From: Eledone cirrhosa
Taxonomy: Eukaryota
Reading direction: 5' to 3'
Length of the DNA: 64,000 nt
NCBI GenBank assembly: GCA_964016885.1
Contig: OZ024740.1
Location: forward strand, 232,748,001-232,812,000
Part shown: one piece after another, positions 241-61,661 of the stretch
Layout: every line of letters begins with the position of its first letter
Position numbering within the stretch: the stretch's first letter is position 1
Program-made: the position numbers and the translations under genes
The notes under the pieces: generated by a model
Databases searched by the model: none
What the model was told of the DNA's origin: nothing
Seen by the model: the letters and a program-made list of their open reading frames with translations, nothing else

Positions 241-288
241 AGTTGCACTGAAGAAAGCAGATATCTTGAAATAAATCCATCTGTGATT
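241..288 (+). ncRNA. Minimal type-I hammerhead ribozyme motif (probably decayed)
   Basis: AGTTGCA-CTGAAGA(248-254)-AAG.cagatat.CTT-GAAA(268-271)-T aaatcc A-TC^TGTGATT. Stem I is 7 bp with 3 G.U pairs; AUC cleavage triplet; stem III loop is not palindromic. Confidence 0.5.
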
Positions 289-1386
289 ACATAAGAAGTC
301 AAAGTTAATTATGATTTCCAAATTCAAATAAATGTATTTTTAACTCTAAAACACCATATATTCTTGTCGCTACGTTAATTCCCGTTGTTCTGTCCTAGAC
401 TAAACTAGCTACTCAAGAAAAATCTTTAGTTGATCAATAGACAAACTACCTCATTTTTCGTTTTGCTATGTTTATAATGTGGATGACAGGGTCGACAGCG
501 AAATTTAGTACAGTGAAAGTACCCCAAAAATCGAAGAACAAAGGTGTATAGTTTCTTGGGACCCGGGTTGAATATCCTGTATTCTCTTGTATATTACACC
601 TGTCTTTTACCTACACACACTATATATATATATGTAATGGAATGAGAGAGAGGAAGCGGGAGAGAGAAAGAGGGAGAGAGGGAGGGAGAGAGAGATGAAG
701 AGAGAGAGACACGCTTACCAAACACGAACTTAAGTATATGTTGGATTTCTCCACCCTTCTAAACATGTTTACTCCTTGCCACTAATAAACTCTTACTTCT
801 GCTCTCATCCTCTTCCACATACATGTTTCTTCTTTTTCTCTCTCACACCAACTCACACCAAATCTCTATCTATTCCCCTCTATCTCTTCTTGTTTCTTCA
901 GCCGTTACTTTCTCTTACGACGTTCCAATCCATAAAACATAGACAAACAAGCACTCGTTCTCTGTGTTTGAGCTACTGCCTGCCATAAATACATACGTCC
1001 ATATATACATACACACAAGCAAGCTCACACGTACACATATAATGTATGTAAATTCACTTAAATTACTATATACAATTAAATAAGTAAATATGTCTGGAAA
1101 ATATATTTACATACTTTGAATGCATTTTTCTGGTACATTACACATTAACACAATCACAAACAAACACACGGGCGCATCCTCTCACTACAAACACACAAAA
1201 TACCAAAATCCTCCACACAGAACTACGTATATATAGACCCCTTGTACCTGGGTGACCCTTCGATACTCTTTGTTTTTCCTGTAGCTGTTATTATTGATAA
1301 TCTTCAATGCAGGCAGTTGGAAGTTTGCATAACCACATGCAAGCATAAAACTCTTCATAATTTCCCTCACAGATACGCATAGACAT

Positions 1387-1624
1387 AAACACACACACAC
1401 GCGTGTGTGTTTGTGTGTGTATATGTGTGTGTGTGTGTGTGTGTGTGTGTGTGTGTGTGTGTGTGTATGTGTGTGTGTGTGTGTGTTTATGCGTATGTGT
1501 GTGGCTGTGTACTTGTGTGGCTATGTTTATGATTGATTAGTGTGTGTGTGTGTGTGTGTGTGTGTGTGTGTTTATGCGTATGTGTGTGGCTGTGTACTTG
1601 TGTGGCTATGTTTATGATTGATTA
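1387..1624. repeat. (CA)/(TG) microsatellite with a local tandem duplication
   Basis: TTTATGCGTATGTGTGTGGCTGTGTACTTGTGTGGCTATGTTTATGATTGATTA occurs twice (about 1486-1539 and 1570-1623). Confidence 0.85.
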
Positions 1625-2189
1625 TGGAAAGAAATAGAACAACACTCAATATATGCTTAGACTCATATATATATATAATTATGATCTTTGCCCTGATACA
1701 CGAGACACATGGCCCTCGAGACATTGCTCCTATATATGTATATATAAATGTGTGTGTTTGGTTTGTGTGTGAGTGTGTGTCTGTGTGTTAGTGTGCGTGT
1801 GTATGTGGGGGGGGGGGGGGCACAAACGAAATCAATTGAAAAGTTGTATTGACTTACTGAACTTAATTCAACCTTACTACATCCCTATATGAACAAAGGT
1901 TCGCAGTTATAGTGAGGAATCTAACATCTTCCAAATTCAGTTACGATTCCGGTAGGGCAGTATTCCATCTCCAACAGCCTCAGTCGTACGATCATGTAAA
2001 AGGGAATTCAGTGTCACTGTCTCTGACTACGTCCGTGAACCCGCGATAAAGACTTAATAGATGTTCGCCTGAACTGCGAAATGCATTTTGTCGTCTTCAA
2101 AGCCTCTTCTGGTTGATGAACTCTCCCGTCGATTGCGACGTACGAGGGTTGAAACAACCTCGTCAGTTCATTCAGTTTGGATGATTATA

Positions 2190-2725
2190 TCGAGTATGAC
2201 ATTTTATCCTGCCAAGTATTTGCAAGCTCGTCCACCGGTTGAGCAAAGGTCAGGAGTACTAAACATTGTTACTTGTATGTTTCATAATGCTTTTCTCCTC
2301 TCCATTATGACACGCACATCTCAAGTTCTTCCGTTCCAATGCCATTTATTCAAATGTATTATAAGGTATATTGGTTCCTGAAAGTTTATTCTTCAGCTTC
2401 TTTGTACCTAAGCCATGGCCGTCCATCATTTCTATACCTACCATCAAGTTGGCTGTACATGAGGATATTTGGTACTCTTTTGTCACTCATTCCGATGACA
2501 TGACCAGCCCAGTGATGTTTTGAATTCATAAGAAAGATCTCAATGCCACCAATTTTGCACTTAGGGAAGAGGACAGCGTTACATATTTTGTTTTTAAGTG
2601 TGCACCCATAAATTGCCCGACGGCAACATTTATGAAAGACGTCTGACCTATGTGGCCTCCAAGATTCTATTCCATATAATAGTGTGGTCAATACAACAAC
2701 TTTATAAATCTCTATGTTCAATGTT
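2190..2725 (-). mobile_element. RTE-clade LINE 3' fragment (post-RT region plus C-terminal zinc-finger remnant)
   Basis: ORF 2386-2721 reads YKVVVLTTLLYGIESW...HWAGHVIGMSDKRVPNILMYSQL...GRPWLRYKE, typical of RTE. A downstream frame gives GRACKYLAG*KCHTR, resembling the RTE CxxC..H motif. Confidence 0.85.
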
Positions 2726-2733
2726 CAAGTATT

Positions 2734-2912
2734 TTGGCAGTATCGGTAGAGGGTCGGACGCCATGCTTTGCAGCAAAGAGTTACGGCCTTTTATGGTCTG
2801 AGTTCAAATCACGCCGAGGTTAACTTTGGCTTTCATCCTTACAGGGTCGATAAAATAAAGTACCAGTAATACACTGGGTAATTGGTGGCCTTGTGCCAGA
2901 AGTAGAAACAAT
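2734..2912 (+). mobile_element. tRNA-derived SINE, family A
   Basis: A-box-like TGGCAGTATCGG, B-box GAGTTCAAATC, central CTTTCATCCTTAC(A/G)GGGTCGATAAAATAAAGTACCAG (resembles the Meta/MESC-type central domain from memory), 3' end GTAGAAACAATT. Confidence 0.9.
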
Positions 2913-59515: not shown

Positions 59516-59721
59516 AGCGAAGGAAAAGTGGTAAGGAACCAGGTGGACCATAACGCACCAAAGTACTCAATACTTAGGGTAGTAGAGTGGGTAATAGGAG
59601 TAAGTAAGACCCCGACGGCTGAGCTCAAGCCGTTTCGACGGCTAATTCTGTACTCAATTCTGTACAGAATTAGCCGTCGAAAAGGCTTGAGCTCAGTCGT
59701 CGGGGTCTTACTTACTCCTAT
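59516..59721 (-). mobile_element. Fold-back element family P2 (inner palindrome 59594-59721 plus tail)
   Basis: Homologous to 6388-6569 and 17581-17788; (TA)n flanks. Confidence 0.85.
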
Positions 59722-60541
59722 ATATATATATATATAGAGAGAGAGAGAGAGAGAGAGAGAGAGAGGGAGAGAGAGAGAGAGAGAGAGAAAGAGAGAGAGA
59801 GAGAGAGAGAGAGAGAGAGAGAGAGAGAGAGAGACTGTCTGAAACAACATAGCAAGCGAGATAATTAATACTAATCAATACGTGATTCGCTGAATATAAG
59901 AAAATATGTGTTGGGTTAGTACAAAAGAAAAATTGAAGGAGTTAACCTATGCTCAGATAGAAGTAGAAACTTTGCTTAGATAAGAGAAAATGGATCTCTT
60001 ATCTACTATCTAGTGAACAGTGACGTACCGTGGGTAATGCAGCAGGGTGTGATGTATGTTATGACAAAACATTGAACACACACACAGACACACACACAGA
60101 CACACACACACACACACACACACACACACACACACACACACACACACACACACACACACACACACACAGACACACAGACACACACACACACACACACACA
60201 CACATATATATATATATATATATATATATATATATATATATATATATATATATACACGGTGACAAATATTGCCTGTATGGGTAATCAAATTGTGTGTACA
60301 TTATTTGGGACAGCCTGTATATGTATGTACATATGTATGTAGGCATGTATGTATTTATGTATGATGTATATATATATGTATATATATATATATATATATA
60401 TATATTAGGAAAATGTTAGACCCCCGACAGAGCCACTTCGTTATATATATATATATATATATATATATATATATATATATATATATATATATATATATAT
60501 ATATATATTGGAAAATGTGTGTAATCCTTGGTACAGTTAGG

Positions 60542-60967
60542 TATATTAAGACAGGGGGGGAAGAAAAAATGGCTTCACTTGTGCTTTCAACAAATTTATT
60601 TTCTTCACAAAATCCAAAAAGAATTTTTCTTAAAAAAATTATTTTATAAATTAAGTTGTTGGTTGTTGGTTAGGTCTTAGGAGTTCTTGGTTAACGTAGG
60701 AGGTATTGTTTCGTTTTTAGAAAGACCTTTCACGCTGAGGTGCGCTTGTCAAACAGTTTGACAAGCGCACCTCAGCGTGAAAGGTCTTTCTAAAAACGAA
60801 ACAATACCTCCTACGTTAACCAAGAACTCCTAAGACCTAACCAACAACCAACAACTTAATTTATAAAATAATTTTTTTAAGAAAAATTCTTTTTGGATTT
60901 TGTGAAGAAAATAAATTTGTTGAAAGCACAAGTGAAGCCATTTTTTCTTCCCCCCTGCCTTAATATA
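60542..60967. repeat. Near-perfect ~425-bp palindrome with a 1-nt centre at 60755
   Basis: ...GCGCTTGTCAAAC-A-GTTTGACAAGCGC...; I see only one substitution and one homopolymer indel, both near the outer ends. Confidence 0.95.
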
Positions 60968-60999
60968 TATATATATATATATATATATATATATACGAA

Positions 61000-61460
61000 C
61001 GAGGTACACTCAAGTGGTTTTGAGACTTTTATCAAAGACATTAATTTTTGCGCAGATCAACACAAAACTCCCTCAAAGTAGGAGCCTCCAAATTCAATGA
61101 AATTGTTGTAGGGCTCTAGCCAATTCTGGAAGGCGCCTTTGTTGGCCTCCAAATTGAAGGTGTCCAGGGCGCTTGTTACAGCCTCCTTCATTTGCCGCAT
61201 ATCCTCGAAGTGGATACCACAGTTCATAACAGTAGACCGACCTCTCGTCACAGGTTCCACTTGGACTGGAATGATCCAGTCAAACATCTTCCTGCTGTCA
61301 TCATTGCGTCTTTGCCTTTGATCTTCATTGAGCACCCATGGGAACAAACCGTCCACGAACTTTGCGCATGTTCAGATCGTCATGAATGAATCTGTGCAAA
61401 ATGAACAAAATGTGTTAGTGTGATCTTTGAAGCACTGGGTGTCTGATACCTTCACATCAC
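61000..61460 (-). mobile_element. Mariner transposase remnant, internally deleted
   Basis: DLNMRKVRGRFVP / WVLNEDQRQRR ... GIHFEDMRQMKEAVTSALD..GAFQNWLEPYNNFIEFGGSYFEG. TIR-like CGAGGTACACTCAAG at 61000. Confidence 0.85.
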
Positions 61461-61521
61461 TATCACTGAGATGAAGATTACTACAGTAATGGCAGGCACC
61501 ATCTTGTTCCGAAGCGGATAA

Positions 61522-61661
61522 TTTTGCTCGCTGATGAAGCTACTCTTAACCGAAATTACGTACGACATAATGACATTAACTAATTTTCTGTGAACGGCAG
61601 CTCCATATGTACTGTCCTCGGCAGATAGAGTAGTAGAAACTAATTAATTAGTTTGGCAAGA
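61522..61661 (+). ncRNA. Type-I hammerhead with a ~98-nt stem II domain
   Basis: TTTTGCTCG-CTGATGA(61531-37)-A.GCTACTCT...AGAGTAGT.A-GAAA(61636-39)-CTAATTAATTAG-TT^TGGCAAGA. Stem III palindrome ACTAATTAATTAGT. Confidence 0.72.

Follow-up and report, generated by a model that had tools for sequence, protein, structure and literature searches.

The window, by which we mean the whole 64-kb stretch of Eledone cirrhosa DNA that was analyzed (positions 232,748,001 to 232,812,000 of contig OZ024740.1, within a 2,996-Mb assembly), contains 12 type-I hammerhead ribozyme motifs. We give a probability of roughly 85% to the reading that these motifs lie in the terminal repeats of Penelope-like elements carrying the protein motifs of the Hydra clade, and that they became numerous via internal starts and early stops of copying. 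Judged from pattern counts, the genome holds more than 100,000 hammerhead motifs. The biology of the motif itself is known; its scale here is the unusual part.

Hammerhead motifs in the window and across the genome

The window has a GC content of about 32% and is rich in microsatellites, including many (TA)n runs. Motifs were searched for with a type-I descriptor (helix I - CUGANGA - helix II - GAAA - helix III - UH - helix I') that allowed mismatches and one bulge; this descriptor was tuned once the matches were known. Twelve motifs reached a score of at least 14, whereas 200 local dinucleotide shuffles gave 0.11 on average and never more than 2. A stricter first descriptor returned 7 motifs against 0.05 in shuffles. 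Named by the position of C3, they are 9361+, 11206+, 31765+, 33031-, 33127+, 36316-, 38262+, 38862-, 47418-, 48334+, 58260+, and 61531+. All of them carry CUGANGA, GAAA, and UH in type-I order, 9361 with a G at position 17.

A preliminary description of this DNA had counted 13 well-formed and 5 decayed hammerheads. The 12 motifs above stand, whereas the thirteenth, at 241+, fails the descriptor and was rejected: its helix II has 3 bp and its helix III 2 bp, and no relatives were present in the 1.3 Mb of sampled genomic loci (designated by L-numbers below). Among the decayed candidates, an intact core is preserved in relatives of those at 31085-, 20529-, and 57883-, but those at 3428- and 31367+ were discarded as repeats whose relatives are free of hammerheads. 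The 31367+ assignment derived from a near-perfect inverted repeat at 31302 to 31438 that resembles a miniature inverted-repeat transposable element (MITE). One further hammerhead-like motif (21794-, spanning 21722 to 21800 on the minus strand) has a TTGATGA core in which U replaces C3. Its ATCTAGAT palindrome is perfect, and each of its two helices forms 7 of 8 pairs; the sampled loci contained no relatives of it, and it was left without a family assignment.

To place the window in its genomic context, 59 stretches of 10 kb (589.6 kb) were taken on a fixed grid. They yielded 47 descriptor matches against a null expectation of 1.2, so that in the grid, as in the window, motif density lies far above that of shuffled sequence. 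Extrapolation gives about 227,000 motifs genome-wide (bootstrap, 154,000 to 304,000). The pattern CTGANGA-N24-38-GAAAYRYRYRTA had 103,370 exact genome matches (52,269 + 51,101) against 286 for the reversed pattern; these are pattern matches of one motif subtype, not individually folded ribozymes. This subtype occurred 19 times in the grid, where 20.3 occurrences were expected, and since it represents 19 of the 47 grid matches, the total would be about 256,000. The estimate is thus 230,000 to 260,000 hammerhead motifs, about 1 per 13 kb, corresponding to an overall density of about 80 per Mb, with the one subtype contributing 34.5 per Mb. The previously described frequency of one motif per 5 kb holds within the window but not genome-wide. 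The window has approximately 2.3 times the average density (P of at least 12 motifs in 64 kb = 0.019 by resampling), with 7 motifs of the GAAAYRYRYRTA subtype where 2.2 would be expected.

Helix III is usually palindromic, as had been described earlier, the palindrome being perfect in 8 of the 12 motifs and nearly so in the other 4. The claim that helices I and II change in sequence and still pair is likewise borne out by compensatory changes in related, hand-picked sequences. Across 15 variants sharing an 8-nt palindrome, 96.3% of the helix cells pair, and 12 of 16 pairs show two-sided changes. The covariation score was reached by none of 500 shuffles, and slid registers pair at 28 to 56%; the shuffle counts should not be read as probabilities, because the sequences are related. 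The catalytic core is unchanged across the same variants despite their altered helices.

Helix II was surveyed in a set of 25 distinct variants, drawn from both grid and window, and 23 of them have a pyrimidine mismatch at position 4 (C·C in 19, C·U in 3, and U·C in 1), which the descriptor did not impose. Positions 1 to 3 and 5 to 7 are paired in 23 to 24 of the variants, with two to four pair types. The mismatch is also found in the 38262 family, which lies outside the 8-nt group by its palindrome, but not in the 36316, 58260, and 61531 families. Helix III free energies range from +4.7 to -0.5 kcal/mol for the hairpin and from -2.2 to -13.2 kcal/mol for a duplex of two copies, with the 14-nt palindrome being marginally stable as a monomer (-0.5 kcal/mol). 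Other hammerhead families beyond the window (grid samples L078 to L136, and L029, L141, and L372) carry helix III types ACCACTGGT, ACAATTGT, ACGGCCGT, ACGCGCGT, ACTGATCAGT, ACCATGGT, ACTAGT, and AATCGATT; the ACTAGT family has a period of 469 bp in L029.

AT-rich, microsatellite-rich DNA might generate such motifs by chance, and the composition of the window as well as the accidental appearance of 241+, 3428-, and 31367+ would fit this explanation. However, the shuffle and reversed-pattern controls were about 40- to 360-fold lower than the observed counts, and the 15 variants covary. A chance origin is ruled out for the 12 motifs, and as a general account it deserves practically no credence.

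Elements that carry the motifs

The preliminary description had proposed a large radiation of hammerhead-bearing Penelope-like elements and suggested extending the high-copy families in search of reverse transcriptase (RT) and GIY-YIG open reading frames (ORFs). Such ORFs were reached for four window families (47418/48334, 36316, 38862, and 38262), which in other copies are contiguous with RT and/or GIY-YIG-type ORFs. This contiguity, together with the genome counts, supports the proposal of a large radiation.

Family A (47418-/48334+) has RT and endonuclease remnants upstream of the hammerhead. In L014 it forms a tandem with a unit of 3,640 nt, in which a broken RT-endonuclease ORF is flanked by pseudo-long terminal repeats (pLTRs). 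Family B (36316-) is young, its best 40 of 1,646 candidates being 98 to 99% identical. Among the 68 ORF matches listed for it, the two inspected contain stop-free frames of 849 to 850 codons with YRDD and YIG present. Its pLTR-ORF-pLTR unit measures about 5.1 kb, the open frames span the start region to the end, and in L159 the cut site lies 227 nt upstream of the first methionine. The 38862 family forms a pLTR-ORF-pLTR tandem in L333 (unit of 3,940 nt), a copy of the 38262 family in L371 runs directly into the ORF start, and an abundant relative of 33127 in L342 has a tandem unit of 3,747 nt. The 31765 family is probably linked to an ORF as well, given an endonuclease remnant 1.1 kb upstream of its hammerhead on the same strand in L145. 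Other candidate links were rejected: ORFs near 58260 and 9361 copies (L138, L140, L141, and L378) are separated from them by (TA)n or wrongly placed, and a 2- to 3-kb similarity among 38262-family loci disappeared after masking of microsatellites.

The Hydra clade is marked by the protein motifs DKT, CxCX5C, CxxC, CxH, and RWK, by the lack of a CCHH motif, by insertion into (TA)n, and by elements that are mostly under 3 kb in length (Craig et al. 2021, PMC8557442). In our set, DKT rather than DKG is present in 7 of 8 ORF regions, the eighth (L145) lacking that part of the ORF. The CxCX5C linker is likewise found in 7 of 8 regions, the eighth ending before it, whereas CX2-5CxxC is found in none. 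Seven regions have the endonuclease CxxC and CxH motifs. At the N-terminal RWK position, three regions have RWR (L160, L342, and L371) and L159 has RWL, the rest being broken or truncated. The open 849- to 850-codon frames are single ORFs with RT followed by the GIY-YIG endonuclease. Partial tandems forming pLTRs, an inverted 5' copy, and an optional tail were observed in L014, L159, L161, L333, and L342, and most 3' junctions in core-selected copies enter TA repeats, as for (TA)n insertion. Among named homologues of this protein, the best are from Argonauta hians, at 48% and 41% identity, in line with an octopod host. By these protein motifs, the elements appear to belong to the Hydra clade of Penelope-like elements.

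This assignment qualifies the earlier view of several unrelated families, which was right only in part. The linked families all fall in this single clade, and the 11206, 31127, 33031, 33127, 47418, and 48334 sequences align at 70 to 89% identity. Moreover, an octopus member with a palindromic-helix-III hammerhead, Hydra-1_Obim of Octopus bimaculoides, has already been published (supplement of PMC8557442). Two frames, one at 8059 to 8916 (+) of L138 and one at 291 to 1628 (-) of L137, resemble those of other Penelope-like clades, so that more than one such clade appears to be present in the genome.

Some families could instead be non-autonomous retrozymes, that is, short noncoding units excised by two ribozymes, circularized, and copied in trans by a Penelope-like protein. 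The 58260 family and a close relative occur in direct tandems with periods of 520, 529, and 540 bp, which would fit short noncoding units with one ribozyme each, and no ORF was tied to the family. According to a recent proposal, non-LTR retrozymes derive from Penelope-like elements and are non-autonomous (bioRxiv 10.64898/2026.07.22.740005). Families A, B, 38862, and 38262, however, are contiguous with ORFs, and at 10 loci the 58260 family shares head-to-head arms and the two 3' ends with the coding families. Its arrangement suggests that the 58260 family is likely non-autonomous, and for this family only, retrozyme status is plausible; as an account of several families it is improbable.

The preliminary description had also considered that motifs in introns might cut host pre-mRNA. 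Co-option of dispersed ribozymes by the host would gain from their frequency, since at about 1 motif per 13 kb many copies should lie in transcription units, and copies of the same family could pair in trans. Yet each well-formed motif of the window is a member of a repeat family, the 9361 copy lacks the cleavage base, and the 61531 family is old and in decay, since the descriptor accepts only 2 of its 9 other copies. Nor did the window yield any host gene. A Pfam scan of 122 of the 176 stop-free frames of at least 55 amino acids gave one helix-turn-helix match and no host domain, a result compatible with short exons or a long intron. We regard host use as very unlikely.

Copy ends, the cut site, and a possible route of amplification

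Copies for the analysis of ends were selected by the ribozyme core alone, and distances were counted past position 17. In family A (n = 36), 18 copies had their 3' end at +52 to +62 and 16 at +141 to +147, with 2 being shorter. In family B (n = 30), 27 ended at +48 to +60 and 2 at +146 to +149, and 1 entered the ORF. Two fixed 3' ends, at about +50 and at +135 to +147, characterize most families; the corresponding values are +54/+200 for 9361 and +71/+208 for 38262.

The two ends are distributed unequally within head-to-head pairs. For 66 such pairs, the distance to the first TA run was measured and assigned to fixed bins, which gave 31 long-plus-short, 3 short-plus-short, and no long-plus-long pairs (P = 3e-7 against independence). 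Admitting ends of 180 to 218 adds 22 long-plus-short pairs (21 from the 38262, 9361, and 58260 families and 1 from family A), for 53 of 56 classifiable pairs, with 10 of the 66 unclassified. Pairs within the window follow the rule, with ends of 49 and 137 for 33031-/33127+ and a short end and 146 for 47418-/48334+. Many head-to-head pairs of the 38262 family (compare 38091 to 38442 of the window) have a near-constant spacing of about 255 to 265 bp; in these, the inversion junction lies at the 5' edge of the ribozyme and the two motifs nearly overlap. Others lie 5 to 11 kb apart.

The 5' ends of family A cluster at -101 to -127 (22 of 34 copies, as at 47450 to 47492 of the window), where a 10-bp hairpin is present (-123 to -86). 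A transcription start near -115 was considered as the cause of such ends, which occur in family A and the 31765 family and are absent in family B, but was rejected, the hairpin of family A explaining them equally well.

Whether copies are made from cut RNA can be read from their junctions at the cut site. The 30 nt 3' of this site were matched exactly by 39,982 copies; 248 of these had three nonmatching bases before the site, and about one-third of those inspected were true junctions. The corrected number of cut-site junctions is therefore about 260 (upper bound, about 420), or about 0.6% and at most about 1%; about 99% of the nearly 40,000 copies run through the site. Junctions were estimated at 257 for +1 and at 65, 69, and 87 for +5, +9, and +14 (corrected values with an assumed filter pass rate, the +1 value being drawn from 9 of 29 distinct loci among the first 30 of the 248 matches). 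This 3- to 4-fold excess may have sources other than cleavage, because two of the +1 loci are near-duplicates, another is an internal deletion, and the anchor begins with AT, giving microhomology with (TA)n targets. The ribozyme-selected loci, a sample biased by that selection, showed no pile-up of junctions at the cut site. In L227 to L256, about two-thirds of the junction matches were intact elements with a 1- to 3-nt deletion at or next to the cut site, for which slippage in an AT run is the simple reading and a ligation scar a possible one.

The rarity of cut-site junctions also bears on the idea that the fold is kept for a noncutting job, such as the pairing of pLTRs or the placement of protein near the start points, with negligible cleavage in cells. 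Read-through by about 99% of copies would be expected on these grounds, and both start points lie at a fixed 50 to 210 nt from the ribozyme. In the anole element, catalytic mutants had no effect on insertion in vitro, and no reads of transcriptome sequencing started or ended at the site (PMC11167929). Conversely, the core is invariant across the 15 variants with changed helices, re-ligated circles would be read through too, and junctions at +1 were about three to four times as numerous as those at +5, +9, and +14, although this excess may partly reflect microhomology. A purely noncutting role seems unlikely to us, though less so than retrozyme origin or host use.

The reading that we prefer, of Penelope-like elements amplified through short copies, would proceed as follows. 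Copying would start just downstream of the ribozyme, from two internal reverse transcription start sites, one per cut DNA strand and probably used by a protein dimer, and would usually stop early, leaving one or two ribozyme-bearing stubs. As both starts lie just 3' of the ribozyme, short copies keep it, which would account for the high ribozyme numbers. Since about 99% of the copies cross the cut site, we infer that the template RNA is almost always uncut or re-ligated. Helix III is predicted to be stable only between two copies, so that cutting would need two paired pLTRs, in a tandem transcript or two RNAs, perhaps along with the element protein. Cleavage would then free unit-length RNA from read-through transcripts, and lone stubs would be mostly silent. 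Dimer cleavage is predicted here from folding energies and published work on other elements; that work is also the model for the predicted protein dependence and unit-length release (PMC4209133, PMC6765202, and PMC11167929). What the hammerhead does during transposition of Penelope-like elements is treated as an open question in the literature (PMC11167929 and PMC7761336).

It should be noted that several observations weigh against this reading. Among the element links, AT-rich repeats lie within the one proposed for the 31765 family, and no ORF link was found in the sampled loci for the 9361, 58260, 61531, and 11206 families. Pfam detected GIY-YIG only below its cut-off (E = 6e-4, L026 frame) and no RT family in the intact frame, and the units of 3,640, 3,747, 3,940, and about 5,100 nt exceed the length of <3 kb given for Hydra elements, a descriptive rather than strict trait. 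With respect to the ribozyme, the covariation set was our own pick of descriptor matches with related members, and only 7 of 25 variants have G-C as the canonical 10.1-11.1 pair (A-U in 9, G-U in 8, and U·U in 1). The commonest helix III types are weak as duplexes (ATATATAT, -3.2 kcal/mol; ATATGTAT, -2.2 kcal/mol), and in all 12 window motifs, folded as monomers, the ribozyme fold lies above the minimum-energy fold. Of the 53 long-plus-short pairs, 2 are duplicates and 5 (L052 to L055 and L057) were found via their likeness to the window pair. Finally, the 5' ends of family B are spread over -45 to -1351, unlike the cluster in family A, and since these distributions differ, the description of copies as mostly short stubs differs by family.

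A bolder, joint interpretation, which we offer tentatively and consider rather doubtful, would add that this is the densest ribozyme population of any animal genome on record found, at about a quarter million, and that it was formed through a two-template mechanism by a sub-lineage of Hydra elements that has a ribozyme variant of its own. The palindromic helix III would pair two pLTRs in retrovirus style, and a protein dimer would prime the two strands at different starts, one near and one far, producing one-short-one-long pairs. The small excess of +1 junctions would be a trace of germ line cleavage, and the conserved C·Y mismatch in helix II (position 4) might serve for docking or as a protein contact site.

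Window features and comparison with known systems

Several motifs of the window have short 3' ends. The hammerhead at 9353 to 9418 (+) (helix III, ATGATCAT; +54) has, as described previously, a G at position 17, located at 9410; it is probably inactive because its relatives have A there. Its family has 3,352 exact genome matches to a 36-nt family motif. The hammerhead at 11198 to 11264 (+) (helix III, ATATGTAT; C·C at helix II position 4; +52) is a sequence relative of 47418/48334 and is itself unlinked to an ORF, and that at 31757 to 31818 (+) (helix III, ATATATAT; +51) has its predicted cut after 31810. This position and those after 48378 and 58331 had been given correctly in the preliminary description. 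Decayed members lie at 31073 to 31135 (-), in the 33031/33127 group whose relatives have an intact core, and at 20529 to 20565 (-) and 57883 to 57920 (-), in short-helix-III hammerhead families; the former of these two has the core CTGATGG (relatives, CTGATGA/CTGAGGA), and relatives of the latter read CTGATGA...CCGAAACGTT.

The hammerheads at 32975 to 33039 (-) (short 3' end, +49) and 33119 to 33183 (+) (long 3' end, +137) are the left and right arms of a head-to-head pair, both with helix III ATATGTAT. A 5'-truncated 3' end of a young Hydra-type element of family B (36129 to 36933, -) has a long 3' end (+147) and a hammerhead at 36270 to 36324 (-) with helix III ACATTGT and a predicted cut after 36278. 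The inverted-repeat insertion of the 38262 family (38091 to 38442, +) holds a hammerhead at 38254 to 38404 with a helix II of 116 nt, helix III ACGATCGT, and a predicted cut after 38396; the 37-nt motif of this family has 4,738 exact genome matches. The hammerhead at 38800 to 38870 (-) combines helix III ATGCGCAT and C·U at helix II position 4 with a long 3' end (+142); its cut is predicted after 38808. The approximately 950-nt 3' part of a family A element (47317 to 48268, -; hammerhead at 47366 to 47426; short 3' end) faces an inverted partner (48265 to 48524, +; long 3' end, +146) with a hammerhead at 48326 to 48386 and a predicted cut after 48378; the commonest 45-nt core has 689 exact matches. 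The 58260-family hammerhead spans 58252 to 58339 (+) (helix III, ACTAATTAGT; predicted cut after 58331). A head-to-head stub of the 33127/48334 group without assigned strand (59314 to 59516) is hammerhead-free, being truncated just 3' of the ribozyme, and the 61531-family hammerhead (61523 to 61661, +; helix III, ACTAATTAATTAGT) is old, with copies 72 to 80% identical.

Other repeats accompany these elements. A 120-amino-acid frame with HNRPDIVV...E and no Pfam match (40347 to 40709, +) presumably resembles the restriction-like endonuclease end of R4/Dong-type long interspersed elements. The transposase-like remnant at 43709 to 44236 (-), which has an HTH_32 Pfam match, is probably Tc1/mariner. 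A repeat of about 105 bp resembling a short interspersed element has about 20 copies in the window at 84 to 98% identity (e.g., 26020 to 26123, 49637 to 49741, and 50929 to 51036). In addition, the window contains a near-perfect, MITE-like inverted repeat (60686 to 60823), a CA-rich minisatellite array with 45-, 90-, and 135-bp periods (27543 to 29133), and an assembly gap of 200 N (about 4155 to 4355).

Families of tens of thousands of copies together with a young ORF-bearing family make this genome a record of the reaction, in which the starts of copying, the unequal arms, and the rarity of cut template can be read. Family B provides a ready protein-RNA pair for an in vitro system of the anole type, and a clade described from 27 families can evidently dominate a genome. 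A standard Rfam scan of the window did not bring the motifs to light, as no hammerhead family was among the best 150 of 301 matches, which were microRNA entries driven by microsatellites. Beyond PMC8557442, our searches found no paper linking octopus with retroelement hammerheads among those listed, and the main text of a 2026 repeat annotation of Octopus vulgaris (PMC13282606) contains neither "ribozyme" nor "Hydra." Within these searches, the copy number, the density, the helix II mismatch, the 90- to 145-nt tails, and the counted one-short-one-long rule are new. The mismatch was not found in print, although Lunse et al. 2017 (PMC5785218) or the supplements of PMC4209133 may describe it.

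The elements share with the Hydra clade (PMC8557442) a C-terminal GIY-YIG-type endonuclease, the DKT, CxCX5C, CxxC, and CxH motifs, (TA)n targets, and a type-I hammerhead with palindromic helix III about 50 to 200 nt from the 3' end. They differ in their many families, more than 100,000 ribozyme copies, and units of 3.6 to 5.1 kb with pLTRs, and also in a helix II of at least 8 pairs (up to 116 nt) with C·Y at position 4, unseen in the listed Hydra ribozymes. The hammerheads that Cervera and de la Pena (2014, PMC4209133) described from pLTRs of metazoan Penelope-like elements have the same type-I topology, predicted dimer activity, and a helix II that is long; they too occur as dispersed single motifs left by truncated elements and as opposite-strand pairs 100 to 700 bp apart. 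The strict minimal motifs of that system lack helix III, whereas those in E. cirrhosa have palindromes of 7 to 14 nt, like the Drosophila, rotifer, and shrimp variants; here, G10.1-C11.1 is mostly replaced. No genome in that study had more than about 9,000 counted motifs.

Poseidon of Anolis carolinensis (Frangieh et al. 2024, PMC11167929), for which cutting and priming of both strands and protein-assisted cleavage have been described, resembles our elements in its two internal starts 3' of the hammerhead, which were measured in vitro, its optional tail, and AT-rich targets, and its main template is unprocessed RNA. Its tail of 30 to 40 bp is three to four times shorter than the approximately 90 to 145 nt found here, and no strand difference was seen in vitro, while the two arms here nearly always differ in the end they use. 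That one of the inverted pLTRs can have a tail had been noted qualitatively before (PMC3846280). Non-LTR retrozymes (Cervera and de la Pena 2020, PMC7229834) likewise have type-I hammerheads and very high copy numbers, and the 58260 family is similar to them in its short tandem units. However, retrozymes are noncoding tandem repeats of 170 to 400 nt with canonical ribozymes, whereas most motifs described here are the ends of coding elements. The largest published count found, 126,247 type-I hammerheads, is that of the 28-Gb axolotl genome (PMC7229834). This corresponds to about 4.5 per Mb, compared to about 80 per Mb in E. cirrhosa (34.5 per Mb for one subtype), a rough comparison since the descriptors differ.

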